A stretch of 64,000 bases of DNA, from contig CAJINV010000018.1 of assembly GCA_905178155.1 (NCBI GenBank), forward strand, positions 910,609 to 974,608, in the 5' to 3' direction. Shown here piece by piece: positions 1 through 64,000 of the stretch. Each line of letters opens with the position of its first letter. The stretch's first letter is position 1. A program made the position numbers and the translations under genes. The notes beneath the pieces were generated by a model, which was not told the DNA's origin, searched no databases, and worked only from the letters and a program-made list of their open reading frames with translations. This stretch comes from Amoebophrya sp. A120. Taxonomy: Eukaryota; Protista; Dinoflagellata.

Positions 1-3000
1 AGGGTGAGAAAGTAGAGCCCAAAGTGCACCAAGACAAGCAGGAACTTCACCTCCTGCAGATCCAGGTAGCCGACCCGGTCCCCAAAAATCGCCGCCACGT
101 AGAGGATATGAACTGAAAAAGTATTGCATCGCATTCGTATAAATGCATTACAAATTTCCTCAGCATGAGAAATACACTTTGTAATGCGAATTTACCTTAA
201 GAAAAAGATTTGTAATGCACGATTGCAATACGAGTACTATACTTTTGCACAGGATAGAGAATCTGGAAGAGGCAGAATCCCCAAAGCAGGAAGGCGATTT
301 TGCACGAAGAATTGCTGGTGATCGAAGTCTATGAACTGCAAAAGGAGTACCTACTATCGTACTAGTTGAAATTGCAATACATCTTGCTCAGCATTACACA
401 TGGAATTTGTCGTGCTGATTCAGCTCACGAGAAAAATTCCTCATGCATAACTGCAATATTAGTACGAATGCGATACTTTTACAGTTGATAGAGTCTTTGC
501 GTACAGCCGGTTCGTGGCCAACAGGCAGAGGTAGTAGTGGAGAACCAGGACAAGCACCAGAAAGACCGACAAAAAACACACGTAATCCACGTCAAGTTGG
601 TATCCTGTGCGAAAGATGCACGGTGATAGTTCTACTGACCTAGCGCTAGCGCATTGCAGCTGCACAAATTTTTTTTATCCTTATGCACAAAAAAATATCT
701 CCGAACAATTTTTGCACAGGATAGACGGAGCCAGATGACGAAGGCAAACACCGTGACCAGGAGCGTGACGTACTTGGACGGGTAGTCGAACCGGGCGGGC
801 ATGATGAGCCTCTCCGCCGACATTTTGCTGAAGCTACGGCTGTATCAAATGTAAAAATGTCTGCATCTGGAAACTTGTGATGCTGGGTGGCGTCTCATGA
901 TGAGGCCACAAATGCTGGCGCAGCATGACAAGTTTCTGAGCTCCCGGATGTTGCCTATTCTGCATGACAAACTGCGTTTCTGCATGACGGAAAAACGGAG
1001 CTCTTGGGTAACGTGCATTACAGACTTAAGAGTCATGCCAGACAAGCATGACAAACATGCATTCTTCTAGACCCAGACACTTTTGCATTTGATAGGCTGC
1101 GGATCACGTGTTTGGCGATGTAGTTGGGTAGGAGAATGTCAAACAGCAGGTCGAAGAGCAGGACGGAAACCGAAATATCCTGTGCAAAAGCATCGCAATC
1201 GTAGCAATTGCAATTCTGCATTTACAAATCTCCATCCCAAGGCAAAACGGCATGACAAAGTCCATTTGTAGTCATGCTGAGGTTCTTTATAAATGCAATT
1301 ACTACTAGTACGATGCTTTTGCAGTTCATACGAGAACGGAAACAGCAGCTCCCACACTTCCATCGCTAGCAGTGCGTCCACCTGCTGACTCTCCGTCCGC
1401 GGGGTGCCGGCGGAGTTGGTGGCGACGACACTGTAGCCATCGTTTTCGTAGGCCGCACTCTGGGTTTCGTAAACCATGTCTTCGATCTTTCCCTGGCTCG
1501 CGATCCACATGCAGAGGAAATCGAACATGAGCATGGCAATCACGGCAAAATAGGTGACGACGAAAAAGACCAGGTTTCGCGTTTCTCCGGACGTGAATCC
1601 GACGGAGTCGATATCCTGAGTAAAAACATCCCCACCCCAGAGTTCTTATCATGCAGATTTGCAATTGCAGGAAGATTTGTAATGCGCACCCCCATGAGAG
1701 GCATTTCCAATCGTGTTTTGGAATTTATGATGCCGTAAACAGAATAGGTAGATGGGTTTGTGATGCGGTTGAACTTGCTAGACTGCACTACAATGCAGAA
1801 AGGAACTTGTCATGCGCGACTCCCAAAGCTTCTGGATTTGTGTCGCGAGATCCCCGTCTTGGCTCTGGTGTGGGGACGTTTTTCCTCTCAATAATCGAAG
1901 ATGTTCCCGCCCACCCGGATCAGCTGCATGGCCCCCACGGCGGGCACGAGCCCGGCGATCCAGTCGGTTAGCATGGGCATCTCGATCCCGGGGGTGCGTG
2001 CGTATTCTGAGTAAAAACGTCCCCACCCAAGAGTTGTTGTTATGCAGATTTGCAGTTACAGGAAGATTTGTAATGCGCATCCCCATGAGAGGCATTTCCC
2101 ATCTTGTTTTGGACTTTGTAATGCTGTAAACAGGATGACTAGATGGATTTGTGTTGCGGCTGTACTTCCTAACCTACACTACACTACAGAGAGGAACTTG
2201 TCATGCTTGAATCCCAAAACTTCTCGATTTGTATTGCGAGATGTCGCCATCTTGACTATGGGGTGGGGACGTTTTTACTCAGGATAGTGCGTATACCAGA
2301 TTCAAGTACAGGTTCGGGAGCGAGATGATCATGTACGTGATGGTCAGCAGCAACAGGGAGATGAAGGCAAACACGAGTCTGGTATAACCTGCTCAGTTGT
2401 CACAAGCTCGATTTCATACAGCGTTAGCACAGAACATGGAACATCTGTGATGCGAGAAGTGCACGATCTAGCCCACTCGCACAACAGGATTGCGCATGAC
2501 AAGCTCCGGAGCAGTCGCAGTCCCAAACCGTGCTAAAATTATCATCATCTGGCGAAATTTGTATTGCAGAAACTGGAACGCTCTGCGAGTCTGTCATGCT
2601 CATCATGCAATACAAAATCCAGACTCATCTATTCGTAACAGTTGAGATTGAAACGCCTGCGCAGGTCATATCTTGTCACCTTGAATTCAATGTCCCAGTT
2701 AATCATTTCCGGGTCCGTCATTGCGGGTTCCTATGACAGTGCACAACTGCTCCCCCTCCCCCTCATTTGTAATGCAAAATCCCAAATCCAGCTGGTGCCT
2801 TGTAGCAGCACTGTTTGCATGATAAATCCTGGAAGGAGCCCAAACAGCACTATACGGCGGTGCAAATTTGTTATGCAAAACCGGCACTCCTGCTGAAGCT
2901 TGCATTGCCGTTCATGCTATACAAATGAGTCAGGAGGAGGAGGGAGGAGGCAGGAGGCAGGAGTAGGAGTTGTGCACCGTCAACATACTTCCAGCGAGAT

Positions 3001-6000
3001 TTCGTATTTGTTCAGGAACTTCGGCGGTTTGGTCTTCTCGTGGTTGTTGTTTGCCAGCACCAGGTCCCGCATGTCCCGAGTGCCGAAGGTAATGTAGCAG
3101 GTGCCGTGCATCCTATGAACTGCAACAGTATCGTACTCGCATAAATGCATGACAAATTCTCTCAGCATGAGAAACAAAATTTGTAATGCTGATTTACGTT
3201 GAGAAAAAAATTTGTAATGCATGATTGCAATACGAGTACGATACTTTTGCACAGGATACATCCGCGCCTTCAGCAACATTTTAAACACGTACTGCTCGTC
3301 GCGAGTGCTCAACTTGTCGAAGATCGGATATCCTGTGTAAAAACGTCCCCACACCATAGTTGTCATGCAAATCAGCACGCCAAAAAAGTTTCTCATGCGA
3401 AGCCCCATGAGAAGCATACTCTACTCGTGTTTTGGAGTTTGTGATGCTAGAATCGACACGATATGCTAGATCTGTGACGCTACTGAACTAGCGAAACAGG
3501 ATCACACTATGAGGGCAAACTTGTCATGCGAATTAGCGAAAGCTGGTCGATTTGTCTAAGTAGCAGATTTCCCATCTTGACTCTGGTGTGGGGATGTTTT
3601 TACTCAGGATATCGGCACCAGCTTGTTCGAGTTCGGACCGTAGCCCAGAAGGCAGTCGATCGGCTTCAGGGGGGGCAGCTTCCGGAGACTCTTGTCGAGA
3701 AAGCTGTCGCGATTGCGGCCCGTCGCGCGACTAGAGAGGCCGGACAACGCGAGGCCGTCGGTGTTCAGATACTGCAGTTTCCGCTTCTCGTCTATGGACT
3801 TTTCAAGCGTTATGTTCTCAACTGTTCCAGCACGAATTTGCGATGCAAGAACAGCAACTCAGTGAAAGGCGCCAGCTTGCGGCAGTCGCATCACAAATTT
3901 GGCCCCGACACTGGTCCTGATGTTTAGCCCTGTTTCGAGAGTTTGTCATGCAAAGTAGCTTGATCGTCTGATACAGGTACTAGTAGCTCAATGGCAATTT
4001 TGCAATGACAAGTCATGCTTGTAACAGTTAAGAATGTAACTTCCGAGAATGCCATATCGTCCAGGTTGTGTGTGTGCTCCTCCAACATTTTCAACACTGC
4101 GCGGTTTTGGTGGTTCTGAAACGACTGTGGCAGGGTGTACCGGAGACTGCACCCGATGATCTGCAGGTTTGGGTTCCACTGCAGCAGCCACTTCTGCACC
4201 GCCAGCGCGTCGGTACCCTGCGGAAAGTTGCTGGCTACCAGGCAGAACTGCCGCGGACTGGGCAGCAGGCTGTCGCAGGCGTGCCCGATCCGGAGGCAGG
4301 ACAGGTAGTACCAGAAGGTGAGGAGCATGGCGCCAAAATACACCCCGAGCAGCCCGCCAGCCATTACCTGTTCGACCTTCGTCTGCTTCCACTGCTTATC
4401 AAGTGCAAAAGTGTCTGGGTCTGGAAGGATGCAACTTGTGATGCTGCATTTGGACTCCAAAAAAATCTGCATTGCATGAGCAGCAAAGGGAGTGCAATTT
4501 TTGCTACGGGAAGAGGGCATTTGTCATGCGGAATAAGCATCCAGAAGATCACAAAAAATCTCTGATGCTTGGGCATGCATCACAGACATCATGGCTCACG
4601 CAAAACTTGCATGACAAGTCTCAGAATCTTCCAGACCCAGACACTTTTGCGCTTGATACTGCTTACTCTGCTCCGCCTCGAACATCCGATCGGCGCTCGC
4701 TTTATCCTGTGCAAAAGCATCGTACTCGTAGTAATTGCAATAATGCATTACAAATCTCTCTCTCTTAAGGCGAATCAGCATTTACAAATTTTCCTTCTCA
4801 TGCTAAGCAAATTTGTCATGCGATTTATACTAGTACGATTATACTTTTGCATTGCATACGCTTCGGCTTCCTCCAAAGTTGTTGCATCTTCGCTTAACAC
4901 GGAGGTGTTCTTCCGTGAGGAAGAAGATCCGGAGCTGCGGTTGCGACGTCCACCACGACGTTCCCGTCGACCCTTCTCCTGCTCGACACTCGACATGCTC
5001 ATCTGGAAGAAAGACGTAAATTGCTGCCTCAAAAAGCCTACCGGATCCGCGGCGGCGGTTCGGAGGAGGTGATCTTGTTGGTCAACTACACGGTCGCGGC
5101 CCCTGCCCGCCTGGTCATCGAAAATCAGTCTTTCTTCTGGCGTAGAAGCAGAGCTCCTACTTGCAGTCGACGTTCTCAAAAGTCTACTCTTTGTTCCACC
5201 GCCTGGTATCGTGCTGTCGTGATCTCTACTCTCTACTTCTGTTGTACCAGAATTTCTTGTTGCCACGCTTTTCTTGTTTATCTCCAGGAAGGAGCTTGAC
5301 GTAGCACTTTTCGACGCCCCCGCGGCGGCGGCCCAGGATGAGAAGTACGCGCTCTGCGTGTTGTGAAACAGCAGCTCGTCGTCTCGAATGCCGTCCTCCT
5401 CGTAAATTTTTCCGCACTTCAGCTCCAGTTGCAGCAAACCCGGTCGTGCGGGCGTCAACACCCCGCCGGTAGCAGCGCCGGACATCGCAGCAGAGGGCAC
5501 TACAGAAGTGCTTCCGGAGGTCGAAGAAGATGTCGTGTTCGCAGAGCTTGTTCCTGTTGTTGTGTTCTTGTCGCTCGTACCAGTACCAGTATCCTTCGTG
5601 ACAAAGTCCCCTTCCGCGTGACTCGACCCCCGGAAGAGGACGAAGCTCTGCATTTGGTCACTGTAGAGGCTCGCCGTGCCGTAGAAATACACGCGGGTGC
5701 CGCAGACCTGCAGGGCCAGGGCGAGCGCTTATCCTGTGCAAAAGTATCGCACTCGTAGTAATTGCAGTCATGCATTACAAATCTCGTTCCCAAGGCAAAT
5801 CAGCATGACAAATTGCATTTGTCATGCTGAGAAAATTTGCAATGCAATTCATGCTAGTACGTCGATGCTTTTGCATTTCATAGCGCCACCACCAGCACCA
5901 TTCGGTGGAACGCGAAAAAGAAGTAGTGCCCCGGCCCCACGTATCAAGTGCAAAAGTGTGTGGGTCTGGAAACTTGTGATGCTGGGTGGCGTATTGTGAG

Positions 6001-9000
6001 GAGGCCACAAGTGCTGGCTCAGCATGACAAGTTTCTGAGCTTCTAGGTGTTGCCTATTCTGCATGACAAACTGCATGTTTGCATGACAGAAAAATGGCGC
6101 TCCTGGGCAACGTGCATGACAGATTTGAGAGTTATGCCAGACAAGCATGACAAACATGCACTCTTCCAGACCCAGACATTTTTGCATTTGATACCACGTC
6201 GGTCGGCGAGGGGAACACGCGCCACAATACCGGGAAAAAAGCGCTGTGTCGCTCTGGAAAGTCGTCCTCATCGTCGTGATCATTTGTTGATGTGCTGGCT
6301 GCGGTTACTGCTTTTATTTTCTTTTCGGCAGGAGAACCAGGAGGGGACGTCGTCGACTTCTCAGTTCCACCGTCTAGTTGTTTGTCATCTTCATGCGTTT
6401 TCTTGGCTTTGTCACTTGATTTCGCAGCTACCAGGGGCGATAGGTTCTTGTTGTTCCTGCTTCCAGAAGGAGGTGATGGACTTCTACCCCCTCGAGCTGG
6501 ACTTCCAGAAGTTCTAGACCCGGCGACAAGAACGTCGGACCGCAGCCGGCCCCAGTTGCCCAGCACCTTCTGTGGCCGGCAGCACTGCTTGTAGACGTAG
6601 GCCGCCCACGTGTTCTCCACGCTGTTCACCGTTTTGCGCAAAAAGAGAAGCAGCAGGTACAGGGCGGAAACGGTCACGATCACGAGGATGAAAACGTACT
6701 CGATCAGCACAATCTTGTGAATCAGATGGGACTCTCAAGCGTTACATTCTCAACTTATATATTACATGAATTTGGCATGCAGAGTCACTATATCACGCTT
6801 CTCACGATGAAGCTTCTTCGCATGACAAGTTCTCGACAAGTCATGTAGCAGCATAATCTGTGCCAAATCTGTAATGCAAGACGCGCATCAAGGTCAACGT
6901 CAACCCTTTCACTTTTCCGATTCTTGCATCACAAATTCATGTAACAGTTTCTTGTTGAGAATGTACCGACTGAGAACGCCATAAATCAGCCGGTTCTCGC
7001 ACACGGACCCGTTCCCCGACAACGCCATGCCCGTGTCGCATATTCTATTTAAAAACGTCCCCACCCCATAGCTGTCATGCTGATTTGCATCTACAGAAAA
7101 ATCTGTAATGCACATCTGCAAGAGAGCAATTTGCAGTCGTGGTGTTCTGGGATTTGTAATGCTCTAAACAGGATGAGCAGACGTCTTTGTGATGTTGCGG
7201 TTGTCCTTGCTAAACAGCACTACACTACAGATGATAACTTGTCATGCATACCTCCCAAAGCTGGGAGATCTGTGTTGCAGATTTACCAATTTGACTATGG
7301 GGTGGGGACATTTTTACTCTGGATATCGCAGCGGTGACACTTGTGCAGGTAAAACGGCTCGTCCTGCGGAGGTGTTTGCCCCGCTACGCTCGTCGCGCCG
7401 GACGTGCTGTTTTCGCCGAGAATCGTCCATTTCCGCGTGCTGGTGACGTCGCATTCCACGCAGCCCTATCAAATGCAAAAATCTCTGGGTCTGGAAAAGT
7501 GGAACTTGTGATGCGTGTCTCGCATTCCTGGAAAATCTGTGTAGTTGCACGAGCACCAGCAAAGGAGAAGCTTTCTTTGTCATGCGAAAACGAAATTTGT
7601 AATGCGTGCTAGGCATCAGCAGGCGTCTCAAAAACTTGTCATGCTTGGCTGCCATTGCAAGCGCTTCAATCATGCTCAATTCAGCATCACAGGTTTCCAG
7701 ACATCCAGGGATATCGATATTTGCAGTGCATAACCCCGGAATCACCGCGCGCCCACACGGCACCTCGCACTTGCGGCTCTGTGGGTTTATGGATTGTAAA
7801 AATGTCTGGGTCTGGAAGGATGCGAACTTGTGATGCGCATTTCACAACGCAGAGAAATCTCTCATGCATAGGCAGCAAAAGGTGCCCACTTCCTGTCACC
7901 TCCAAAGTGGGGGATTTGTCATGCGGATTAAGCAATGCGGAAGCTTCTCGAAATCTCTGATGCTAGGGCTTCCATGACAGACATCTTGTGTCATGCAAAA
8001 ACAGCATAACAAAAATCAGCATTCTTCCAGAGGACCCAGACACTTTTACATTTGATAGGGTTCGCGAAGGAACGAAGCCGGTCGAAGTCCCCGCACTGGT
8101 CCGGGCGCACGCAGATCTTGTAGCACGGGGAGTCGTCACTCGGGATCTCGAACCCGCACTCCTCTGGACAGGGGGTGTTTACGGGCACCAGGGCCGTGTT
8201 GTCCGCCGACATGGGGGCGCAGGAGCACATCGCCTGAATCTTCTGTGCGCGCACGCTGGTTTTGTGCTGCGCCAAAGCGGAAGACGTCGCGCCTGCTCCG
8301 TAGTCCGTTCTCTTCAGCAACGACGTCCACCGCGACAGCTCCGCGTCGCAGAGCAAGGCTCGGGAGGTCGCCGTGTTGGGGCTCAGTTGGTTTTCTCCGG
8401 CGAGAATGCTGGTGGACACGTTCTGTGGCATGCTGTAGAGCAGGGAGGTGTAGGAACCGCTGGCGGAGTTGTCTTCATCTCCGGAAGTCGCTGTGCTGCC
8501 GAAAATGATTTCTTTGACCGCGGTATCCTATGTAAAAACGTACCCACCCCATAGTCAAGATGGGGAATCGGCTAGACAAATCCACAAGCTTTGGCTGTTT
8601 CGCATGACAAATTTGGGCGCGTAGTGTAGTTCTGTTTGAGCTAGTTCAGCAGCATTACAGATCTAGTCTCTCATGCTGATCAGAGCATGACAAATTTCAA
8701 AACACCATTAGAAAATGCTTCTCATGGGGCTCCGCATGAGAAACATTTTTTTTTAAGCATACAGATTTGCATTACAACTCTGGTGTGGGTACGTTTTTAC
8801 GCAGGATACGCGGTGGAAAACGTCGTGGGGCTGAACAAGTCCATCGCGTTTATCAAATGCAAAAGTGTCTAGGTCTGGAAGGATGCGAACTTGTGATGCT
8901 GCATTTGGATTCCAAAAAAAATCTGTATTGCATGAGTACCAAAGGGAATGCAATTTTTGCTACGCTGAGAAGGCATTTGTCATGCGGAATAGGCATCAAG

Positions 9001-11483
9001 AAGCCCTCGAAACATCTGCGAAGCTACGACATGCATCACAGACATCCTGGCTCATGCAAAACGTGCATGACAAGTCTCAGAATCTCCCAGACCCAGACAC
9101 TTTTACACTCGATGGCGTTTACGTCCGTGCCAAACAGGCTGTTCCTTTGCAACCCCGGTGGCACTTTGTTGCCCAAAATATTTTCGATGTCGTTCCGCCG
9201 ATACGGCGAACCCTGCGCGTGAACCGCGCTCAACTGCGAAGTGGATTCATCAGTTCCGTTTGCGTCCCGAGTAGCAGAGCCGCTCGCCGTCAACACGGAG
9301 GCTACCCCGTCGATGCTGACCGTGCTGCCCTGGGCCGTGTCGGAGTTACTCGCGTCGAACGAGTACAGGGGAAAGTGGGCGATTAAATCGCTGTAGGTCG
9401 TCGTGTTTTCGTCGTACACGTGCTCCAAGACTGGCTGTGTACTCACCTGCCAGTTGTACTCGTCGTTCCACAAAATACTCGCCCCTGTAGCTGACTTGAA
9501 GTGGCTGATGTTCGTCAACAGTGCCGCCGCGGTCGTCGGTTCGTTCGTTTTATGCAATGCAAAAGCATCGTACTAGTATGCATGCATGACAAAATTTTTC
9601 AAGAGAAAAAATGCAATTTGTAATCATGCTGGTTTACCTTACTTGCTGGATCTGTCATGCAAGACGGCGATTAGTACGAGAACGAGTACGATACTTTTGC
9701 ACAGGATACGTTTTCAGCTTCAGCAACTCCTGGTTCAACCGGTAGGTGTAGTACCGATTCAAAGTCTATCCAATGCAATAATTTGTCTGGGTCTGAAAAT
9801 TTGTGTTGCTGATACTCCCATTGCAGACTGGCCGCTTGTACGGGATAATAGCATGAGGAGCTTGCCTCTGGTCTGCAGCTTCATGCGAGTTCATGGGTAA
9901 ATAGCATGGCAAACTGCCTTCGAGATTCCAGCACGGCAATAAAACTCGATTATCCACTCCTGCTATTCATGCAAGCATACAGACCTTGCAGCTGCCGTTC
10001 AAATCGCGCATCACAGATCGACCACGACACCCAGACATCATATTTGCAATGGATATATCGGACGCGTGGACCATTATCTCCTCGCCCGCGTGTATCGCAA
10101 GAAAGACTTGCCTCGCTGCAAGCTTGTGATGCAGCGCGTGCGGAACAGAAATGTTTCTCTTGCTACTTACACATGCAAGATAAAAACCGTGGATTTGTAG
10201 TTTCTAGCACGGACGCACGGCAGATTCTTTATTTTCATGTAGAACAAATCTGTGAAGATGCAGAACTTGCAAAATCCTTACAGTGAAACACTTTTCTCGT
10301 ACGATAGTGTGGTTGCCGGTCCCGTTCTTTTTGCCAGCTGCGATGTGGAGCTGTTTTAGTTGCGCCACAATGTCGTCCTCCTTGTCTGCGTAGTCCGGAA
10401 TCTTTATCCCAGAGAAAAAAGCGGGCAGGGCATTTTTGTAATGCAAAAACAAATACACAGAAAAGCTTTGTCATGGGTGGCCCCATAGCATGCTGCTTCG
10501 GATATGCAATGCAGATTTTTTCTTTTTGCCTGTTTATTTTTGCATTACAAATATGCCCTGCCAGCTTTTTTCCGTGTAATAATTTTGCTGCTGTCCCACC
10601 CCACCGTGGTCATCAATTTCAAAAACCGCTGGTACGCCTATAACCCTCTCAGGTGTTACATTCTCAAACGTTACAACAGAGTCTGAGATTAGTCTTGCAT
10701 GATGAGCATGACAGACTCACAGAGCGTTCGACGTTCTGCAATACAAGTAGTTTCGTCAGATTGTAGTGGGGTTTGGGGCTCCGGAACATGTCATGCGCAA
10801 TCCTATGAGAGTTGTCTAGATCATGCACTCTTGCATCACAGATGTCAATATTCTGTTGTAACGTTTGAGATTGTAACACCTGAGCGGGTGATAACGCCTC
10901 CACACTGGCGCCTAGGGCCTTCGCCTTGCTTATCAGCACAGGTTCGTACACAGCGATTTTGGACAAGTTCGGGTGCGACACCAGCGCCGCGATGTAGGTA
11001 TCCAGGGTGGTTTATCAAGCTGGATAAGAAAAAGTGCTCCTACCTTAGACCGTGAACTTGGAAGCATCTGCATCGCACGGTTTACTTCAAAATGGATATG
11101 GAAACAATGATCTCCATTTGGCATATAATGCCAGCAATTGCAATACAAATTCTCGATCCAGTTGCAGAATTATAGCGTAAGTTTTCCCGTTGGTCTGGCA
11201 GCGGGGCACCTTTTCCTTATCATATGGTCGCCTTCAGTGCGAACGCCAGGTCTTGAGCGTCTGAAACCGTAGGCGCGGTGGAGGAAGTCGCTTGTGATTC
11301 GAGTTCGAGTCCGAATACAGGAGACATCATGGAGGTGCAGCCAAGACAGCAGACCACGATTGCCAAGGCGAATAATCTTCCCTTGTTGGGTGCTCCACCA
11401 GCTACTAGGGAGGCGGTAGGTCGTCGTATTGTGCTTCCACTCCTTAGGCGAATACCGCCACGATGATCGGGCACCACCGCCAT
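1..11483 (-). CDS. Large multi-pass membrane protein, OSCA/TMEM63 (CSC1)-like, with long Cys-containing N-terminal region; split by 28 introners; 3' end runs off the window
   Basis: Exons join after removing each element plus one DR. OSCA-like motifs: PSPRQFCLVASNFP, GTCYITFGT...LEPAMTDPEMINWDI, FDYPSKYVTLLV; many hydrophobic helices. Putative start MAVVPDH at 11483. Only some junctions were frame-checked, so single-gene status is inferred. Confidence 0.7.
107..256. mobile_element. Introner, family B
   Basis: tatgaactgaaaaagta...acttttgcacaggata; DR gagga/gagaa; frame restored (FQILYVAA). Confidence 0.85.
330..490. mobile_element. Introner, family B
   Basis: TAT..ATA TIR; DR aagtc/gagtc. 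Confidence 0.85.
601..723. mobile_element. Introner, family B (short)
   Basis: tatcctgtgcgaaa...ttttgcacaggata; DR gttgg/gacgg. Confidence 0.8.
843..1094. mobile_element. Introner, family A
   Basis: tatcaaatgtaaaaatgtctg...cagacacttttgcatttgata; DR ggctg. Confidence 0.92.
1176..1330. mobile_element. Introner, family B
   Basis: TIR; DR cgaaa/cgaga. Confidence 0.88.
1612..1893. mobile_element. Introner, family C
   Basis: tatcctgagtaaaaacatccccac...gtggggacgtttttcctctcaata; DR gtcga/atcga. Confidence 0.88.
2003..2286. mobile_element. Introner, family C
   Basis: TIR; DR gtgcg; close relative of 1612-1893. Confidence 0.92.
2383..2670. mobile_element. Introner, family E2
   Basis: tataacctgctcag...ctgcgcaggtcata; DR tctgg/tcttg; related to 10639-10893 in opposite orientation. 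Confidence 0.8.
2732..2987. mobile_element. Introner, family J
   Basis: tatgacagtgcacaact...agttgtgcaccgtcaacata; DR gttcc/cttcc. Confidence 0.8.
3114..3258. mobile_element. Introner, family B
   Basis: TIR; DR catcc. Confidence 0.92.
3329..3611. mobile_element. Introner, family C
   Basis: TIR; DR tcgga/tcggc. Confidence 0.9.
3793..4056. mobile_element. Introner, family E
   Basis: tatggacttttcaagcgtta...taacttccgagaatgccata; DR tcgtc. Confidence 0.88.
4397..4658. mobile_element. Introner, family A
   Basis: About 32-bp TIR; DR ctgct. Confidence 0.93.
4703..4858. mobile_element. Introner, family B
   Basis: TIR; DR cgctt. Confidence 0.92.
5730..5882. mobile_element. Introner, family B
   Basis: TIR; DR gcgct/gcgcc. 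Confidence 0.9.
5942..6193. mobile_element. Introner, family A
   Basis: TIR; DR ccacg; close relative of 843-1094 and 46298-46556. Confidence 0.93.
6725..6983. mobile_element. Introner, family E (left end GAT variant)
   Basis: gatgggactctcaagcgttac...gagaacgccata; DR aatca. Confidence 0.88.
7041..7325. mobile_element. Introner, family C
   Basis: TIR; DR tcgca. Confidence 0.92.
7467..7732. mobile_element. Introner, family A
   Basis: TIR; DR agccc/acccc. Confidence 0.86.
7788..8057. mobile_element. Introner, family A
   Basis: TIR; DR gggtt. Confidence 0.9.
8524..8808. mobile_element. Introner, family C
   Basis: TIR; DR cgcgg; opposite orientation to 18062-18340. Confidence 0.92.
8851..9114. 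mobile_element. Introner, family A (right end ATG variant)
   Basis: TIR; DR gcgtt. Confidence 0.9.
9551..9708. mobile_element. Introner, family B
   Basis: TIR; DR cgttt. Confidence 0.92.
9767..10055. mobile_element. Introner, family A (degenerate)
   Basis: tatccaatgcaata...tatttgcaatggata; DR eroded, but removing element plus 5 nt keeps frame (HASTLNRYY). Confidence 0.72.
10093..10306. mobile_element. Introner, family H
   Basis: tatcgcaagaaa...ttttctcgtacgata; DR gcgtg/gtgtg. Confidence 0.78.
10405..10581. mobile_element. Introner, singleton with about 55-60-bp TIR
   Basis: tatcccagagaaaaaagcgggcagggcatttttgtaatgc...gcattacaaatatgccctgccagcttttttccgtgtaata; DR atctt/atttt. Confidence 0.85.
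10639..10893. mobile_element. Introner, family E2
   Basis: About 42-bp TIR tataaccctctcaggtgttacattctcaaacgttacaacaga; DR acgcc. Confidence 0.92.
11013..11224. mobile_element. Introner, degenerate singleton
   Basis: gataagaaaaagtgctcc pairs with ggggcaccttttccttatc; DR tggtt/tggtc; frame ALKATTLDTYI. Confidence 0.72.
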
Positions 11484-49221: not shown

Positions 49222-52200
49222 TCAGTCATCCTCGATAAACCGCATTTGGGAACTGGTACTCGCGGTTTGCTTCCCTTCCTGAGAGTACTTGCTGACTAAC
49301 CTGACGCCGCTGCTATTTCCGGGGTTCGATGACGATGAGGCACCCCCAGGCGAAGAGGCGCCGTTGTTTTCGCGATGCAAGCGTGAGTCGAGTTTGCTTC
49401 TAGGAGGGCAATCTGTTCTCACGACAGGAAGGATAAGCGGTATCGGTAAACAAGAAACATACTCGGAGTATAAACCAGAATCAGACGCACGCTCAATGTC
49501 AATGCGAGCCATAAGTAGCATAATCAAGATTAACGACGTCATGCATGATGAAATTTGACCGTATCCTTACTTCCGCCGGCCTTGCACAGTTCAAAATCTT
49601 CGTTTTCATCATATGTGACGTACTATTCCAAACTCGACTCAGCCTTCTGCCACACGTCCATACCCCGCGGCCCCGCGCGTGAGATTATTTCCACTGTGTG
49701 GTCCGGACGACCCGAGTGGGGAATTGTAGGCGGAGCTACTGTATGCAATGCAAAACAGGCATCGCACTAGTATAAATTGCATTACAAATTAGCCCAGCAT
49801 TACAAATTAATTCAATTTGTGATGCTGATGTACCTTGAAAAAGAAACTTGCAATGCATAAATGCAATCACTACAAGTACGACATTTTTGCGCAGCATATA
49901 CTGGCGGACGACGCAGATCCACCGCCGTGGTAACTCGCCGCAGAGGCGGACCCAGCGGAGAAGGCTGACCCGGCGGATCCGGAGGACAGGTTTCGCCTGT
50001 TTGGCGGCGGCACGCCCTGGCTAGTACTGCTGGCCGCACGGTAGCTGGACATGGATCCGGCCGATATGGATTGCAAAAGTGTCTGGGTCTGGAAGATTGC
50101 AACTTGTCATGCTAAATCCGAATCATGCAAAAATCTGTGTTGCATGATTACCAAAAGAGGTCCACTTTTGAACAAGGCTCGAGGCAGTTTCTCATGCAGA
50201 ATAGGCATGAAAGAGACCTCACAGCCTCTGTCATGCTAGGTCCCGCATTCCAGACCTCGAGGGTCATGGAAAACCTGCATGACAAGTCCACACTCTTCCA
50301 GACCCAGACATTTTTGCATTTGATAGCCGAGGCGCTGTTCCGATTTTGGATCGTGCCGTAGATCTCCTTCTGCCGTCGTTCCTCCTCTTGTTGGGATAAG
50401 CGTAACGCCTCCTCCAGTTCGCGGTCCTGCGGGAAGCTTTCTTTCCGGGACATTTCCAAAACCTTCGCCAAGTCATCGTCTATATCGTCCGCAGTAGAGG
50501 CGCTGGTGGCTGCGCCACTTTGGTGTCCTCCCCGCATGGAAGTTTCTTTTTCGGAGAGCCGGAGAACCCGCGCAAAATCGTCGTCGTCGTCGATCTGCTG
50601 AGAGCGCTTCAAGGCTTCTTGCAGATCGTCCTCCTCTTTCGTGCGGATTCGTGAGCTCTGGGACAGAGCGGCCTCCAGCATCTGCCCCTCGTCGTCTTGC
50701 TGTGAAGATTTACATTTAGTATATTCGGCTTGTAGTTTAGAGATGAAAAACTGATTCATCTCGTCGCGAAGGTCCAGGAATTTATTGTATGGAACGCGAT
50801 CGCGAACCACGCTCCGAGTTAATACAGTTTCAGTAGAAACCAAATGAGTACTAGAGAAGATGAAGAAGAAATTCGACAAACAGATAAGAAAAACAATGTA
50901 GAAGCTACCGGAGCATCCCCCTCGACCTTCAGATTGCTTTTCGCCGCTTTTTCCAGTATCAGTGCCTGCTCCCGCCTGGCCTCCTCCAGCATGGCCTCCT
51001 TCTCCTTCAGTTGCTGAATGGGGTCGTTTATGCATTGCAAACATGTCTGGGTCTGGAAACTTGTGATGCAAGGAAGGGATTACTGAGAAAACTGCAATGC
51101 GCTCCCCAGCATGACAGGCTTTTATTCCGTAGTTCGGACTCGGAGTTGCGTACTCCGCACGAGAAACTGCGTTTTTGCATGGCAGACAAGAGGCGCTCTG
51201 CGCGGGCACGCAATACAGCGCTCAGAGTCATGGCAGACTAGCATGACAAAGCTCGCAATCTCCCAGACCCAGACGTATTTGCAGTTGATATCGTTCCGCT
51301 GCATGGCAACGACAGCCGGATTCGGTGGCGGCGTGAACGCGGCGCTTTGCTTATCAAAAGGAAAAATCCCCCCTCCCCATATCAAAACGAAATTTCTGAT
51401 GCTGGATGTGTGTACACCAATCAGGTTTGTATTGCAGCGAGGCACTGCGGCCAGATCCCCAGGCTAGGTAGGGGCGTATGGGTCTAGTTGTTCAGCACGG
51501 CAAGCGGCTCACTTTTAGGCTAAACAGCATGACAAATTGCTTCCATAATGGGGCGGAAGCTTCTGCCGGGTCTCTTTGCAAGACAAATGTGATTTGTACC
51601 CTCAAATCAGCAACACAAATTTTCGGGAACATACCTTCTCGATATGGGGAGGGGGGATTTTTCCTTTTGATATTGCTTCCTCCGTTCCAGCCTTTCCTTT
51701 TCCCTTTCGTTCATGCTTGCAAGCGAAGATTTGTTGAAAATAGAGGTGTCGGTGAGGACCTCACCACTATTATCGTCATTCACAACTGCGTATCCGGTGC
51801 AAAAGCATCGTACTCGTAGTAATTGCATTTATGCATTACAAATCTCCGTCCCAAGGTAGATCAGCATGACAAATTCCATTTCTCGTGCTAATCTAATTTG
51901 TAATGCATTTTATACTTCTAGTACGATGCTTTTGCATTGCATACTGCAGCTCCCATTACAGTAGAGCCGCCAGTTGTATCACCTCTCGCGACCGTTTCTT
52001 TACTTGGACTCGAACTGAACAGCGGCTTGATTGCCGTTGCGATCTCCTCCTTCCTGGTTATCAGGGACGCTCGTGGTCCTCCTCCCTCTGGGTCGTCTAT
52101 TTGTTCACTTTCTCCTCCCGTGGGTACGATCTTTGACGAGTAAACGTCGGACCCCCGACCTTCCTTCTGCCCGGCGGCTTTTTGCAGCAGCATATGCATT

Positions 52201-56294: not shown

Positions 56295-58067
56295 TCACTT
56301 TCTCTTGACCCGGCAGAAGCAGTTGATGTTTTGGCCGAAGATGAACCCTATCAAATGCAAAAGTGTCTGGGTCTGGAAGTTTGGAACTTGTGATGCTAGC
56401 TCTCCATACCTGGGAAATCTGTATTGCATAGCCAACAAAAGTCGCAGCCGCTTTTGTACATGCAAAGACGCAGTTTCTCATGCGGATTGCCTATGAGAAA
56501 GTGTTCTGAAAATTTGTCATGCTGTGTCGAATTTGGAATTGTTTTCATCATCCACATTTTAGCATCACACATTTCCAGACCCAGACATTTTTGCACTTCA
56601 TAAACCCGATCAAGACCTTGGTCCAGCTGTCGTAGTAGGGGAGGGAGTCGTAGAATTCCGGCGCAATCTCCCGTACCTTGGGCAGCAGCCGGCCCGGCAC
56701 CTTCGGAAAGTCGTGGTGCTCGTTGTGGTACCCCACGTTGTAGGCGAAAAAGTTGAGCCACCCGTAGTAGCTGTAGGTTTCCTGGCCGGAGATGAACTCG
56801 AAGTGTTCCGCGATGAAGTGTCCCGCCATCGGGTGGAGACCCAGGCCGAGGATGCTGCCGAGGAGGAGGTAGGCGAAGGACTTGTGGCCGAAGTAGGGGG
56901 AGGTGGCGATGAAGAAGTCGAAGGACCCGACCACCACCCAGTTCAAAATCTCGTTGCTCGTCACCGGCTTCGGCTTGACCAGCAGGGGTCGCAACCCGTA
57001 GAAAAAAGGTTGCAACGCGACCCACAGCGCTTTGGTGATGGTGTACCGGAACAGCTTGCCCTCGAACTTCGTAGGCAGGTCCGCGTCCATCTTCTCGCTG
57101 CCCTGGTACGTGTGGTGCTCCAAGTGGTACCTGGTTAGCATGATTTTGCCGGTTTTGTCATGTAGTCTCGTGTATCTGGTTCTGGAAACGAAACCGATGA
57201 GCTTAATACGAAAATGCAAAATGTTGACAAAGCATGTTGCGGTGAGACAGGACCAACAACCTACTTCGTTCTTGTTTTCAAAGAGTATAGTACTGCAACA
57301 CAAACATCAAACAACTAATATAAATATTAAGCAATTGCAATACCGTTTAAACGTGCTTGCGCTGGCAACGCAGGTTGGGCAGTTGATAAACCAGGCGAAG
57401 ACCGTGTTGACTTGTTTGTTGGGGAACCAGAGGTCGTGCGAAAGCTCGTGCATGGCCAGCACGAGGGAGTGGTTCATGGTTCCAGAGACCACGTACCCGC
57501 ACAGAAAAATCAGCCACCATGAGGCGTCCCGGAGCAGGTAGGCCATCGTCAGTTGCACAATGCAAGTCCCGATGCAGAAGACCTGGAAGAGGTTTCATGA
57601 ACGATAACCATAACTATAATTACGATGCATCGCAACTCTACAATGTAGATGTACTCATACTCTGTCTGCGTATCCAATGTCTAATTATCATGTAATGTAC
57701 TTATCAAAGTTGTCTCATTGTTCCTTTCAATGTATACCGCGCTCAACGGGTCGGGTTTGTAGAGTTTCAATATTTCCGGGTGCTTTTCCAGTATCGCCTT
57801 TCTTCTTTTCACGTGCGGCTCCAGATCCTCCGACCAGCTAAAATCCACGGCCGGCTTTTCCCGCCACAGACTCCTGTCGTGTCCCAAAGCGTCCTCGTAG
57901 AGCTTGGTGTCAGCACCGGATTTCTGTTGCACCATCTTCAACGTGCTGGCCGCTGCCCGGTTCGTCAGTGCGGATTGCGGCGTGGTCGCTGTGTCTTCCG
58001 CGGTCTGCACTTTTTGCTCGACTGCGGAAGGCGTGTCGTTCACCACGCGCGAATTCAGGAGCGCCAT
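56295..58067 (-). CDS. DEGS1: Sphingolipid delta(4)-desaturase (DES1/DEGS1 family)
   Basis: EPHVKRRKAILEKHPEI; His boxes HELSH, HLEHH and HNEHH; HPMAGHFIAEH; ETYSYYG. Two GT-AG introns plus one introner. Confidence 0.95.
56349..56602. mobile_element. Introner, family A
   Basis: TIR; DR aaccc; removal joins VLIG|FIFGQN. Confidence 0.94.
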
Positions 58068-59682
58068 GGTGATTTTATTTTTTGTTCCAGTATACGATTA
58101 TAATACGACCACGTAGACTGTTTTTACGTTTTTCTTCGAACTAGTGTATTGGTTTTTTTTGTCAAACTTATAGTTAGATATCAGCTCTTCTTCAACATCT
58201 TCGTCGCAGAACTGCAGCCCTTTATTTTCGCTGCAAATCAAGCTCTAAAGAAATGGCCCTTGCCCTTGAAGTTCCGAAAAAAAAACCTGAATGTCGCCGA
58301 AATTGGGTCGCGTAATGTTTTGTAGATGTAAAGGAGAAAACAAAAAGCTGCTTGCTGTACTGTAAGTGCGTTCGTTTTATTTCGCTTGCGTTCTTAGCCT
58401 CTGGTTTAGGATATACAGACTTGTATTGTTCCTGTTTCTAGGTTTTGGTCAGAAGCAGAAGATGCACGAAGGCTGGATAATTTGGAACGGGTTGTTGTTG
58501 ACAAACTTTGTAGCCGGAGGCAAAAATTGCAATTTTCTGCAACAGATATTAATCGAGACACGGTTGGAACGTCGACCCAGGATTTGTTTGAGTAGGAATT
58601 TACTGTACCTACTGTCTTTGTGAGAGATATTTACTCAAATACAGCTGCTGGATCAAATTTTACATTTGAAGCTGCTGCTGCTGCTGCTTTACGAGCTACG
58701 GTTCTCGTCTCGTCTGAGGCCGTGTATAGCTTTTTTCTCACCACAATTCTATACAGATCTGCTACAAGAACTTCTCTAGCTTAAGTAGATGCAGACCTCC
58801 GTGCACAGCGGGGAGGGGAAATTTTTGGGATTTCGGGATCCTGCAGGTGGTCGAGTGATTTATTGGGATTTTCAGTTCAAAAGCCTAAAATTGGTGATGG
58901 TTTTTCACGTACTAGCAAAAGACTGTCCTCCGATGATGCATTGAGCTGTGCAATGTAGACGTTATAGGAAATTTCTTGTCTCTTGTGGGAGGACGGAACG
59001 ACTTATCTGTTGAGCAGTGTACGTAGTTCACGGTCCCTTGAACGTCATGGCTCGGCGCAACATCCTCTCAACGTAGTGCTCCTCTTGTTGCTATGGGACG
59101 AAAATATATCAGTACAACAAATAACGTGAAAGGACGTCGAAATACTTACACCGACAAGAAATCTGGAGACTTTATTCGCTGTCTGCTCTCGTAAAGCTTC
59201 CAACCTTAAGTCCTCTTCTACGGTCTACTTTCACCGAGCTTACTTTGTGGACAAAGCGAACTCAGATGTGATGAACTCGAGCAACAGCACCCCCGCAACT
59301 CGAGGACCGATTTTTTTTGTCAATTGTTTCGTCGATGATCCAATGTCGTCTTGTAAGACCATGAACACGAAAATCAACATGACGGTGTGCTGCTGGTGCA
59401 GGGGGACCACTACAAAGGAGCACCAGAAGTAGTACGTAGTAGTGCTTACCTTTTTTCTTGGAAAAAAATGGTTGTGACACATCTTCAGACGAAAGCAGTC
59501 AAATCTATACATAGGAGAGTTGAGAAAAAACAGGCGAACATGAACAACATCGAGCTGCACGACCTCCGCGGGTTGTTCTTCCAGAACTACTTTTGAGTTT
59601 GTCGGAGGAGCAAGAATGCAAGCTCTTTGTGCAACATGAAGATCATTTCTTCCTCGTCTGCAGCTGCACCCACGACTTTATC

Positions 59683-62600
59683 TTAGCTTCCGGTTTTCGC
59701 CATTTTTCTTGCCTTCCAGGCCTGTGCCGCCTGCAGGATCTTCAAATTCTTCTCGCCTGCGGAGTCCTCTGGGAATATGTAGTCGATAAATTCCTCGTAA
59801 TCGTCCTCGTCGGGCCCCGTGTTTTATTGTGAGGAAACATCCCTCCTCCCCATATCGAAAAGGCGTGCCTTTCAAAATTTGTGACGCTGATTTGTGGCCA
59901 CGGATCGGGTCTGTCTTGCAAGAGAGCAAAGCCAGGGCTTCCGCTGCACTTCGCAGGCGATTTGCAATGCTGCTACGCAACTAGGGCAGACATCTGCCAT
60001 GCTAAGTGCTTACCCCAAGCCACCCCTTTCAGAGCTTCGTATCTGTCTGCAGTCCTCTACCGCAAGACAAATCCGATTTGTGTACACAAATCCTGCATCA
60101 CAGATTTCCATTCCGATATGGGGAGGGGGGATTTTTCGTTTCAATATGTTTTTTCGCACCTTCTTCTTCTTCGGCTGCCGGTCCTGGATCTTTTCGTACC
60201 AGGCTTTTCGGCTGCCGTCCTCTATCGGGAGAAAAAAGTGTTTCACTGTGCAGAGGAGGACTTTATTGCAAGTTTTGCATTACAAGTTCGTTACACATGA
60301 CAAGGAAAACCTGCCATGCGTACTACCTAAGGGAAAACGCATTGAAAAAGACAATGTCTTGCATGTGTAGCAAGACAAATGCGTCTGTGTTGCTGCATTA
60401 CATGCATCACAAGTTTCATACAGTGAAACAGTTTTTTCCTGCGATATCTTCCTCGTTGACGTGAATGAGCAACTCCTGCTCCTCGTCCGCCACGAAAATT
60501 TCGTCCCGCGCGCGTTTCTTATCCAGTGCAAACATGTCTAGGTCTGCAATAAACTTGTGATGCTGAATTGCGTGTGCTTGAAGCGCTTGCCGTTGCAGCC
60601 AAGCATGACAAGTCTACTTTGAGACGCCTTCTAAAGCCCAGTACGCATTACAAATTGCGTTTCTGCATCACAAAGGAGGCTGCTCTTTTGCTGCTCACGC
60701 AACACAGATTTTCCAGGAATGTAAATGTAACACCCGCATTACAAGTTCCACATTTATTCCGAACCCAGACACGATTATATTTGCAGTCCATATTTCTCCA
60801 GCTGGAGCCACTGCTCTAACAGCATCGCGCGCTGCTCGTTCATTTTCTGTTCCTTGTACTCCTTCAGCCCCCGTTCGAACAGCGCCCGCATCTTGGGCAG
60901 GTTCCGGGCGGTCTCCAGCTCAAACTCGGCGTAGGTGCGCCACACGCGTACGTGGTTGGTCTTTTCCAGCAGCCGTTCGAGTAGGTCGCGCGCCTTGTCG
61001 AACTCGTTCAAACTAATCTCCAAATCGATGTACTTGCGCCACATCAGTTCGGGCAAATCCTGCACCACGTCGAGTGCGGTCTCGCACAGAAATCGGCACC
61101 GGTCGTACTCTTCCAGAGACTATCAAATGCAAATATCCCTGGATGCCTGGAAAATGATGCAACTTGTGATGCTGCCATTCGATAACTAAAAAAATCTGTA
61201 TTGCATGGGCAGCAAGAGGAACCTATTAGCTGCTACTTGTAGTGGGTATAATTTCTCATGCGGTATAGGCATCCATTAGGAAGCCGTCACAAAACCTGTC
61301 ATGCTACGGCATGCTTCACAGACTTTATGGGTCATGCAAAATGTGCATGACAAACCTTCCACTCATCCAGACCCAGACATATTTGCAGTGCGTAGAGACT
61401 CTTCGAACTCGACGTACCTGATCCAGGGCTGCGGCATCAGGGGGTGCTTCTCGCACAATTTTTCGTAAATCGTGCGGCACTTGTCGAAATTCCCGAACCG
61501 CAGCTCCACGTCCGCGTACCACTCGAAAATTTTCTGCTTCCCGCACTCCCCGATCCCGCGCCCAAAGATCCGCCGCGCCTGCTCCAGGTTGCCCCGGCGC
61601 AGCTCAAACTCGCTGTACAGCTTGTACAGCTTCGCGAAAGTCAGCTTTTTCGTCGCCGTCAGTTTCATATGGAAGTGTCAGGATCGAAATCGACAAAGTT
61701 GCAATGCATAAAATCTATACCAGTTGGACCTACAGTTTCCATTTGGCGCATCACAAATGCTCACCGCGCCGGAAGCGAATCTGTCAGGCTGTTCAGGGCA
61801 TTAAACGAGCTCCCTTCTGACATGCTAGTTAGCAGCACTATAATCTGCCTTCTTTGCATCCGATGCAACAGAGGCGCCCTCATCTGCGTCGTATTTTATG
61901 CATGACAAATGATTTCAACTGTGTCGATTTCGCTGCTGGCGCTTCCATACTTCATATCAACTGTAAAAATGTCTGGGTCTGGAAAATTTCCAGGTTTGTC
62001 ATGCATATTTCGCATGGGCTATGATGCCTGTAATGTATGACCTAGCATGACAGATTTTTTGCGGGCATCTTGATGCCTATCCCGCATGACAAATGCCCTC
62101 TCCGCGGAGCAAAAACTGGACGCCTCTTGCTGCTCATGCAATACAGATTTTCTTAGATTCCAAAAATAGCATCACAAGTTGCATTCTTCCAGACATCCAG
62201 GGATTTTTGCAATCCATACTTCACCGCGGTGTCGTACACCTTGCGGGTTTTCGGGTATCAAGTGCAAAAATGTCTGGGTCTGGAAGAGTGTAAACTTGTC
62301 ATGCAGATTTTCCATGACCCATGAGGTCTGGAATGCGGCACTTAGCATGACAGACTCTGTGAGGTCTCTGCCATGCCTATCCTGCATGAGAAACTCCCTC
62401 CCAACTTGGTCGAAAGTGGATAGCTTTTGGCACTCATGCAACACAGAGTTTTGTATGCTTCAGATTTACCATGACAAGTTACCACCTTCCAGACCCAGAC
62501 ATATTTGCAATTCATATCGGGTAGTCCTCTGCCACCGTTTCCTCGAAAAGGGCGTAGTTGTACCACAGGTAGATGTACCGCTTCCAGTAGTCCTTCTGCG

Positions 62601-64000
62601 CGACGGGCGGAAACTGGGCGATGGCGCGCTCGTAGAGTTCGCGAATCTGAGTGATGTCACCACCTTGCTCCTCGAGGCGGAGGTAATCAAACCAAGTGTC
62701 GTAATCGCGAGGCTTGTCCTTCAGAGTCTCCTCATAAGCAAACCTGATACATATAAACGAATGTGGTTTATTTCAACAATGGAATTTCCATTTCCTGTCT
62801 GCATGTGCATTATGAGGATATGTTTCATCACGGTAAAAATTCGTACCATGAACATGATGCGTCATTCACTTTAATATTATTCACGTAGCAGCACTGCAGA
62901 TCAGAAGTATCCTGTACTTATTGTAGTTCTTGCTTCGTCAACTAAAAAGCTGAGCGAACGAGAAATCGCATGATGTTGACATTGCATCCTAAAGTCAAAT
63001 TCCGATTTCCTTACCTTCTTTTCTGCATGACCACGTCTTCGATTTGGTCCGGTTTTCCGTAGATTTTTTCGAAATTGACGTATTTTTGGTACAAATCCTC
63101 AGCCCGGTCCTTTGTGATGAGCTCCAGTCCGCCCTTAAAAATGGCCCGCGCCCGGTCGTACTCCTTAGCCCGGATCTATCGAATGCAAAAATGTCTGGGT
63201 CTGGAAGAATGCAAGGTTTGTCATGCATATTTCTCATGACCCATGATGCCTGTAATGCATGACCTAGCATCGCAGACTTTTAGGGGGCTTCATGATGCAC
63301 CTTCCGCATGAGAAACGCCCTGTCCGTGTAGCACAAAGCGCACCCCTCTTGCTGGTCATGCAATACAAACTTTTTTAGAGTCCGAAAACAGCATGACAAG
63401 TTGCATTCTTCCGGACCCAGCCATTTTTACATTTGATAGGATCTCAAAGTGCGCGAACTGGATGTAGAACTGCTCGTCAAGTTCGTTCCCCAAAAGCTCC
63501 AGTGCCTTTTCGTAGCCGGACCGCGTGCGCTTGATCTTCAGTGGGTCGTTGTTCGCGTGTCGCTCCTCGAATTTATCCTGTGCAAAAGTATCGCACTCGT
63601 ATTGCAATCATGCATTACAAATCTTGTACTTGTTCTTAAGCTAAATCCGCATTACAAATTTTTTTTCTCATGCTGAGGAAATTATTTGTGATGCATTTAT
63701 ACGAGTACGATAATTTTGCAGTGCATAGAATTTCACCAGCCGCAAAAACGTATCACGAGAAAAAAGTGTTACAGTTACACATTTGTTGGAGTTTCTGCAT
63801 CACAAATTTTCACTGTCTGGCAGAGAAAACTTGCAATGCGAAGATCATAAGGGAAAACAGGAAGGAAACGAGGCTGCCAAGCATTTCCTGCATGAGAAAA
63901 GTTGTCTGTGTTGCCGGTCGTGCAACACAATGTGTAACTGCAACACTTTTTTCTTGCGATAAAACGCCTGCTGCGTGCAGTGGCAGGAGACGTAGCGCTC
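59683..64000 (-). CDS. CRNKL1: Crooked neck-like pre-mRNA splicing factor (HAT repeats), C-terminal part; 5' end outside the window
   Basis: [77 protein letters not shown]; ten introners plus a GT-AG intron at about 62744-63013. Confidence 0.95.
59825..60146. mobile_element. Introner, family G
   Basis: TIR; DR tgttt. Confidence 0.92.
60223..60446. mobile_element. Introner, family H
   Basis: TIR; DR tcctc/tcttc. Confidence 0.9.
60520..60792. mobile_element. Introner, family A
   Basis: TIR; DR tttct. Confidence 0.88.
61121..61394. mobile_element. Introner, family A (right end GTA variant)
   Basis: TIR; DR gagac. Confidence 0.9.
61668..61949. mobile_element. Introner, singleton family
   Basis: tatggaagtgtcaggatcgaaatcgaca / tgtcgatttcgctgctggcgcttccata; DR tttca/cttca. 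Confidence 0.9.
61955..62218. mobile_element. Introner, family A, abutting the previous element
   Basis: TIR; DR cttca/cttca. Confidence 0.92.
62256..62516. mobile_element. Introner, family A
   Basis: TIR; DR tcggg. Confidence 0.93.
63177..63438. mobile_element. Introner, family A
   Basis: TIR; DR ggatc. Confidence 0.93.
63574..63727. mobile_element. Introner, family B
   Basis: TIR; DR gaatt. Confidence 0.93.
63751..63961. mobile_element. Introner, family D
   Basis: TIR; DR aaacg; reverse complement of 18501-18711. Confidence 0.93.

Follow-up and report, generated by a model that had tools for sequence, protein, structure and literature searches.

The system closest to the one considered here has been described in the same organism. 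Farhat et al. 2021 (PMC7789003) described 29,850 introners from Amoebophrya sp. A120. Their inverted repeats start with TAT, which is followed by seven letters that vary and then by a run of A; they have direct repeats (DRs) of 3-5 nucleotides (nt), a mean length of about 240 nt, many families and no transposase. The position of the intron border is said there to be one that "remains unknown", and according to the legend of Fig. S23 repeats and splice sites are 1-5 nt apart. We analyzed a window of 64,000 nt from A120 (contig CAJINV010000018.1, positions 910,609 to 974,608) in which 74 mostly short elements with TAT...ATA terminal inverted repeats (TIRs) were found, some of them interrupting conserved genes. 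Since an exon of one host gene matches at 100% the database protein P0002, which is labelled Amoebophrya sp. A120, these elements are the published introners, in agreement with the first-pass annotation of the window, which had noted that such introns are described from Amoebophrya. The likeness extends to the TIR of TAT, 7 nt and an A-run, the repeat at the border, the presence of families, the absence from transcripts (our runs being RNA by guess) and the non-GT-AG ends. Compared with the published description nothing is different in kind; the additions made here are a cut register of one letter before the TAT and four after the ATA, a strand asymmetry and a contrast in retention. The introner system is thus already published for this strain, while the register appears to be unreported: no fixed register was found in the Amoebophrya and introner literature by titles and abstract openings, a search that left subscription journals mostly outside, and the figures of PMC7789003 may bear on its novelty.

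The nonconventional introns of Euglena (Nomura et al. 2025, PMC12501133) share with these elements a proposed origin from sequences like miniature inverted-repeat transposable elements (MITEs), a paired terminal triplet, fixed spacers, the lack of GT-AG and coexistence with canonical introns. Their code is, however, N3-CDG/CHG-N5-6 before a purine, while that of the elements here is N1-TAT/ATA-N4, purines not being preferred as the first exon letter (C74, A68, G64 and T50 among 256 exon-start letters), and only here does the triplet coincide with the spliceosomal positions +2 to +4. In Fritillaria borealis (PMC13326754; review PMC11282704) transposon-derived introns with TIRs and target-site duplications (TSDs) are likewise known, with a retuned U2 spliceosome; there AG-AC and AG-AT classes dominate and a duplicated U2AF reads the 3' ends, whereas in the elements here the first and last letters are arbitrary, coming from the target site, and A120 has one U2AF65 and one U2AF35. 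Ginger-like integrase elements, and TIR introners with integrase-like frames in A120, have also been reported (PMC12130899). With MITEs the elements have in common TIRs, a TSD of constant length, non-coding content, high copy number and a subterminal repeated motif (174 matches in the elements, 17.9 kilobases (kb) in all, compared with 8 in the remaining 46.1 kb of the window), and they differ in that no autonomous partner was found in the window and 557 kb of related loci. U at +2 and a purine at +3 agree with a canonical U2 intron, G at +1 together with a 3' AG does not; the removal from DNA typical of ciliate internal eliminated sequences (IESs) was not seen, the elements being kept in place in a DNA-like run (X1).

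A single register, exon/N-TAT...ATA-NNNN/exon (slashes mark the cuts), is compatible with all 14 informative junctions, even where the repeat is decayed. Coordinates are given here as the element body a-b, all on the minus strand, so that the intron under the inferred register is a-4 to b+1; the register can also be expressed as k, which counts how many letters of the left (plus-strand) copy of the repeat survive at a junction. Eight of the junctions come from assembled contigs, five from two database gene models and one from a paralog. The contigs limit k to at most 3 at element 1176, at least 1 at 1612, at most 4 at 5730, at most 1 at both 7467 and 10093, 1-2 at 9767, at most 2 at 10405 and at most 4 at 11013, and k=1 is the sole value common to these eight (chance of any common value 0.059 with random cuts). 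Details of three of the elements are as follows:

7467..7732, minus strand: element with an imperfect DR; its joint 7461-7733 restricts k to 0 or 1, and the same holds at 10093-10306
9767..10055, minus strand: element with a decayed DR (4 of 5 letters changed); joint 9762-10057, element plus 5 nt removed in runs X3 and X5
15805..16001, minus strand: old element of FAM135 paralog 1 whose DR is decayed throughout

The database protein P0001, which contributes junctions 330, 601 and 2732, is identical to the k=1 translation in 1647/1647 residues, with one difference for k=2 and three for each of 0, 3, 4 and 5. P0002 contributes 26001 and 28522 and permits only k=1-2; the chance of any common k over these 13 junctions is 0.005. 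The gene models share the genome and probably similar transcripts with the contigs and therefore extend them rather than replicate them. At 15805-16001, judged by the encoded protein, only k=1 would yield the residues of paralog 2 and its C-terminal length, and a canonical AG 3 nt further on would drop a Gln shared by the paralogs. The published classes also fit the register, although aligner preferences may contribute: in Table S4 of PMC7789003, T is at +2 in all 9 predominant non-canonical classes of A120, while all 9 classes of A25, whose repeats begin TTA, start with TT.

Some observations limit this reading. No lone contig junction fixes k=1, and mixed registers are possible junction by junction; in the P0002 gene 6/7 junctions fit, and at the seventh, 27004-27309, the model cuts 12 nt more, with the paralog P0003 supporting the length given by the register. 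A codon-likelihood comparison over 109 mismatched copies had no power, the predicted direction being obtained in 55/114 and 10/28, and its stop counts for registers 0-5 (2, 1, 0, 0, 0 and 1) carry a classification bias toward 2-3. Runs X3 and X5, which are RNA only by guess, belong to one study, and the gene models depend on such transcripts.

X3 and X5 are two samples which may be related to the source of the window, X1 is a DNA-like run of unknown kind, and for all three the evidence consists of assembled contigs. X1 contigs cross elements in place at a depth of 40-46, which is single-copy depth, with the proviso that contigs drop rare variants and that life stages were not compared. The intergenic bin 11701-12150 is covered by X1 and has depth 0 in X3. 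In two X3 contigs five gaps between aligned pieces, containing 21 elements, equal the gap in the window minus element plus 5 nt, exact to the base, and between 6600 and 11750 element plus 5 nt is skipped at 12/12 elements in X3 and 11/12 in X5, as the first-pass annotation had expected of transcripts. Two of 14 joint rows (7649-10029 and 7818-8888, with sides of 20-21 nt) were set aside as contigs of other loci. None of the window exons was covered by the raw runs X9 and X10, both RNA, which were therefore not used; their reads at 6162-6193, 8553-8606 and 10468-10509 are look-alikes of element ends in foreign sequence contexts. From these results it is likely that the elements are removed precisely from what is likely mRNA, at the RNA level. 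Two elements in which the same terminal pair is broken, once on each side, behave differently:

8851..9114, minus strand: U to C at +2 (5' CAT for TAT); spliced and in place in X3, in place in X5
6725..6983, minus strand: A to C at -5 (3' ATC for ATA); removed, the contigs of both runs being unbroken, joint 6719-6984

For the former, joint 8845-9115 has a depth of 16.4 in X3, beside an in-place contig over 8823-8915 with a depth of 10.5, and a depth of 0 in X5, where a contig spans 8809-8916. A change on the 5' side is thus accompanied by partial retention and one on the 3' side by none, with one case each.

A pattern scan yielded 128 related loci (L001-L128) that carry the same families, 557 kb without overlaps, the best of which match the window at 95-97%; profiles of 13 families, with terminal triplets excluded, were searched in the loci and the window. 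This gave 605 full-length copies in 621 kb, the loci having been selected by element pattern, 413 oriented in reading frames, 93 classed as non-coding and 99 unoriented (two of these with a GTA end). Strand calls agreed with Pfam in 6/6 loci with hits (22 tried). After exclusion of 15 copies with more than two repeat mismatches or more than one end change, and of one with an extra TTT, 397 oriented copies remained, and the counts from them refer to loci chosen by exact end pattern. At L029 7482-7805 TTT is added between the repeat and the TAT, which would keep the frame if the cut is measured from the TAT.

Changed letters number 1 at +2U, 2 at +3A and 14 at +4U (13 minus one doubtful copy) on the 5' side, and 0 at -7A, 4 at -6U and 6 at -5A on the 3' side, compared with mismatches of 5-10% per letter in the DR; U is thus found at +2 in 396/397 copies, A at +3 in 395/397 and A at -7 in 397/397. 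In the mirror pair +4 and -7 the changes are 14 vs 0 (p=1e-4), in the other two pairs they run in the opposite direction (3 vs 10), and the 2x2 asymmetry has p=3e-5; the remaining positions among the 22 end positions show no strand difference, and 3/879 internal columns differ by orientation at p<0.01, below chance. Both orientations of families are about equally common. This dependence of end conservation on the direction of the host gene indicates a reader of RNA and not excision from DNA, and since +4 changes which break the pair with -7 are tolerated, letters and not pairing are read there. Both G at +1 (110/397 copies) and a terminal AG (34 vs 34.7 expected) occur at chance level. A covariation of +1 and -1 (p=6e-5) was dismissed, neighboring DR letters being equally dependent. 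Within the 28-element gene described below 18/140 repeat letters are mismatched and 2/168 end letters changed. The conserved end letters are those read by the spliceosome at the donor, and the canonical donors predicted in this window start with GTA in 7/7 cases and with GTAT in 5/7. U at +2, A at +3 and the branch A all have roles in spliceosomes.

We hold it slightly better than an even chance that the host spliceosome reads an N-U-A donor and a predicted branch A at -7, with the cut measured from the ends. A TIR transposase or integrase would insert the element through 5-nt staggered cuts, the folded element, with an A-tract/U-tract stem at positions 9-14, would juxtapose the ends, U+2 and A+3 would take the place of a GUA donor, the A at -7, which never changes, would be the branch point, and the 3' site would be fixed by distance. 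A 3' site set by distance would make both G+1 and AG dispensable, and with the same triplet at both ends a copy would be spliceable in either orientation and nearly wherever it lands, so that its spread through the whole genome would be explained. A120 is reported to have U2, U4, U5 and U6 with 83/89 spliceosomal proteins (PMC7789003); as precedents, splicing proceeds without U1 in C. merolae (PMC10158995), and yeast lacking Prp18 uses non-AG and branch-proximal 3' sites (PMC10711555). More tentatively, and at somewhat under even confidence, we propose that this amounts to a second splice code, exon/N-UAU...AUA-NNNN/exon, in which a spliceosome without need of G+1 or AG recognizes U+2 and A+3 together with a branch A that lies only 6 nt before the 3' cut, the symmetric ends giving clean introns in either orientation, including recursive twins around a zero-length exon. 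Other observations weigh against spliceosomal reading. U1 small nuclear RNA (snRNA) was undetected in A120 (PMC7789003), homologs of SLU7 and PRPF18 are present there, a branch at -7 leaves 6 nt to the 3' site where the shortest distance in yeast lacking Prp18 is 7 nt (PMC10711555), and the closest architecture, that of Euglena, yields circles and is thought to be non-spliceosomal. Positions -8 to -12 vary without any strand difference and thus do not form a consensus for U2 pairing, and -5 and -6 are conserved far beyond neutral, which means that pairing matters too. The comparison of +2 with -5 (1 vs 6) is alone not significant (p=0.125), the retention contrast was read from contigs with one element each, and 88 non-coding copies are equally conserved at the ends (7/528 letters changed, one at -7), so that there is no neutral control.

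The same RNA-level removal in the same register could be performed by a non-spliceosomal machinery, an endonuclease with a ligase or a dedicated ribonucleoprotein, which measures from the paired TAT/ATA; we regard this as possible and somewhat less probable than not. The Euglena code, with its paired triplet, fixed 5' spacer and longer 3' spacer, is a parallel to it (PMC12501133). Also in its favor are the conservation of all six terminal letters and of the A-tract/U-tract stem, the folding of the elements, far better than that of shuffled sequences (median z -7.9, in 14/73 elements picked randomly), the lack of selection for G+1 or AG and, again, the undetected U1. However, +2U and +3A match the GTA donors of the host in two strains with different element ends, and the tolerance at +4 speaks for letters being read, which an asymmetric protein could do likewise. 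Cutting of the tRNA type at a bulge-helix-bulge was rejected, as direct repeats cannot form the exon-intron helix. Improbable, in our judgment, is removal at variable repeat positions or cryptic GT/GC/GA-AG sites without a single rule. According to the Fig. 3 legend in PMC7789003 the position of the sites varies with respect to the hairpin, one junction of P0002 is off by 12 nt and several registers are allowed by most single junctions, but 13 junctions share one register against the chance given above, and over any equivalent cut GT-AG is on offer in 10/397 copies and GT/GC/GA-AG in 28/397. In the register itself GT-AG occurs in 6/397 oriented copies, not above chance, and in 1/74 window elements, so the first-pass view that there are no consistent GT/AG ends stands, with the correction that the ends are patterned and the intron starts with N-T-A-T. 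Excision from DNA in the expressing stage, as for ciliate IESs, is the least probable and very hard to sustain. The RNA labels of X3 and X5 are guesses and the examined stretches contained no GT-AG intron as a control for splicing; yet elements are in place in X1 contigs and in all related loci, X3 is without intergenic cover, end conservation tracks the direction of host transcription and the introns published in PMC7789003 have RNA-seq support. This alternative, raised by the first-pass annotation, is accordingly disfavored, while its proposal of end-guided excision survives in part: it is the element ends that position the cut, while GT/AG and the DR do not (as at 9767-10055 for the DR), and a purely symmetric hairpin does not agree with the 14 changes at +4 and none at -7, nor with the different retention after 5' and 3' breaks of a pair.

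Regarding the elements themselves, when TAT...ATA pairs flanked by a perfect 5-bp DR and with end pairing of at least 12/20 were scanned for, 42 were found in the window, where 20 order-3 Markov simulations gave a mean of 0.15 and a maximum of 2, and with up to one DR mismatch 60 vs 1.0 simulated. The relaxed scan, edited after reading the entire window, gave the curated set:

107 to 2670, minus strand, elements: 107-256, 330-490, 601-723, 843-1094, 1176-1330, 1612-1893, 2003-2286, 2383-2670
2732 to 4858, minus strand, elements: 2732-2987, 3114-3258, 3329-3611, 3793-4056, 4397-4658, 4703-4858
5730 to 8057, minus strand, elements: 5730-5882, 5942-6193, 6725-6983, 7041-7325, 7467-7732, 7788-8057
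8524 to 11224, minus strand, elements: 8524-8808, 8851-9114, 9551-9708, 9767-10055, 10093-10306, 10405-10581, 10639-10893, 11013-11224
12765 to 18711, minus strand, elements: 12765-12913, 13078-13319, 14596-14804, 15805-16001, 17229-17425, 17744-18006, 18062-18340, 18501-18711
24556 to 28743, minus strand, elements: 24556-24818, 24968-25203, 25291-25547, 26001-26212, 27004-27309, 27365-27624, 28522-28743
31351 to 36595, minus strand, elements: 31351-31579, 33856-34178, 34272-34440, 34491-34796, 36334-36595
40298 to 46556, minus strand, elements: 40298-40452, 40975-41127, 43517-43728, 43824-43989, 44079-44298, 45879-46023, 46079-46237, 46298-46556
49742 to 53850, minus strand, elements: 49742-49898, 50065-50325, 51029-51290, 51352-51672, 51791-51943, 52193-53175, 53543-53850
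56349 to 61394, minus strand, elements: 56349-56602, 59825-60146, 60223-60446, 60520-60792, 61121-61394
61668 to 63961, minus strand, elements: 61668-61949, 61955-62218, 62256-62516, 63177-63438, 63574-63727, 63751-63961
52193..53175, minus strand: 983-nt element, a 150-nt-family shell around an 830-nt GC-rich insertion, sitting in an open frame
61668..62218, minus strand: twin elements of two families with one 5-nt repeat between them, in the CRNKL1-like gene

Relaxed-scan calls at 107-490, 17248-17404, 20981, 22861, 29295, 37802, 40319 and 47732 were dropped or corrected as false or merged. The first-pass estimates agree well with this set: for about 74 elements of mostly 120-325 bp we count 74, of which 73 measure 120-325 nt and one 983 nt, together 28% of the window; for at least 10 families we find 9 clusters of at least two copies and 12 singletons (median best identity between window copies 82%), and 13 families of at least five copies with the extra loci added; and the 5-bp DR ascribed to nearly all is present in 67/74 at no more than one mismatch (0 in 49, 1 in 18, 2 in 4, and 3, 4 and 5 in one element each). 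Intact TAT...ATA ends are found in 70/74, and the ends pair in 72-73 elements for positions 1-3, in 27-50 elements for positions 4-7 and in 61-72 for positions 9-14. Among 428 well-paired end pairs of the related loci the repeat is a perfect 5 nt in 302, and 4 nt in 1, 3 nt in 7 and 2 nt in 41. An Rfam search gave no match. In all families internal GCAT/ATGC cores and terminal A/T tracts diverge by less than 2%, with column medians of 10-29%; conserved beyond the decay of the DR, they are possibly needed after insertion. The exon between twins 61668 and 61955 would have zero length under the register, and two 7-nt spacers in other loci would give 2-nt exons. Spacing between neighbors (483 gaps, window and L001-L128) is peaked and non-random, with three gaps of 5-7 nt, none of 8-21 nt and a peak at 50-69 nt, which could reflect minimal exon size, insertion footprint or chromatin periodicity. 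Element 17229-17425 may be an old copy whose 3' triplet has changed.

No transposase was recognized among nine long end pairs in the 557 kb of loci, the best open reading frame (ORF), in L032, and seven window frames having no Pfam match. The L032 element (476-2934) belongs to a 260-nt family, has grown to 2459 nt, and its insertion carries a 415-codon frame without Pfam match; L049 9991-11566 is another long element. Frames of the 983-nt element likewise had no Pfam match; its insertion (52221-53049) carries short tandem repeats, and the host frame is open once the whole 983+5 nt are removed. An intergenic 1.6-kb element at 47522-49122 has 18-nt inverted ends unlike the TAT family, 109-nt tandem repeats, a near-perfect internal palindrome at about 47700-47870, no clear target duplication and no Pfam match.

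All host genes lie on the minus strand, and their Pfam families are HAT-repeat, Lipid_DES with FA_desaturase, ENTH, UIM and two FAM135/DUF676 paralogs. By family, the first three are taken to be CRNKL1, DEGS1 and epsin, the conserved genes named as interrupted in the first-pass annotation.

3..11483, minus strand: 28-element host gene, no GT-AG intron within the window; it matches the database protein P0001, which has 1802 aa and belongs to no Pfam family
24361..29169, minus strand: seven-element host gene, the one matching P0002
42480..46600, minus strand: epsin-like (ENTH) gene interrupted by six elements, with four GT-AG introns predicted
45620-45798, 45269-45466, 44769-44963 and 44453-44586, minus strand: predicted GT-AG introns of the epsin-like gene
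56298..58097, minus strand: DEGS1-like desaturase gene with one element and predicted GT-AG introns 57131-57343 and 57583-57737
59686..64000, minus strand: splicing-factor gene, CRNKL1-like with HAT repeats, interrupted by 10 elements; predicted GT-AG intron 62744-63014

As had been claimed, removal of an element with one DR restores the ORF: deleting element plus 5 nt leaves a 1742-codon open frame spanning the 28 elements of the first gene. An X3 contig starts at 11678-11690 at a pyrimidine-rich AG site with one non-aligned letter, as a trans-spliced leader would give. The description of a non-GT-AG system needs to be narrowed, as ordinary GT-AG introns coexist with the elements in the same genes; seven, placed by hand and checked by translation only, are predicted in three of the element-bearing genes. 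A fixed branch A at -5 of these introns was rejected, fitting 3/7 only. The FAM135 (DUF676) paralogs (15760-22064 and 30320-37268) lie 8 kb apart and their element sites differ where compared; no database protein was found for paralog 1.

From all these results, the fixed register makes seemingly random splice sites a definite code of +2U, +3A and -7A. A branch at -7 is what it predicts, and with its help the borders of about 30,000 published introners can be annotated anew. If the removal is spliceosomal, exon ligation throughout the genome would do without the G+1/G-1 pair; otherwise this would be a second independent origin of a measuring system like that of Euglena. Either way, it would explain how transposons could invade coding DNA, a core splicing gene included, nearly free of cost.

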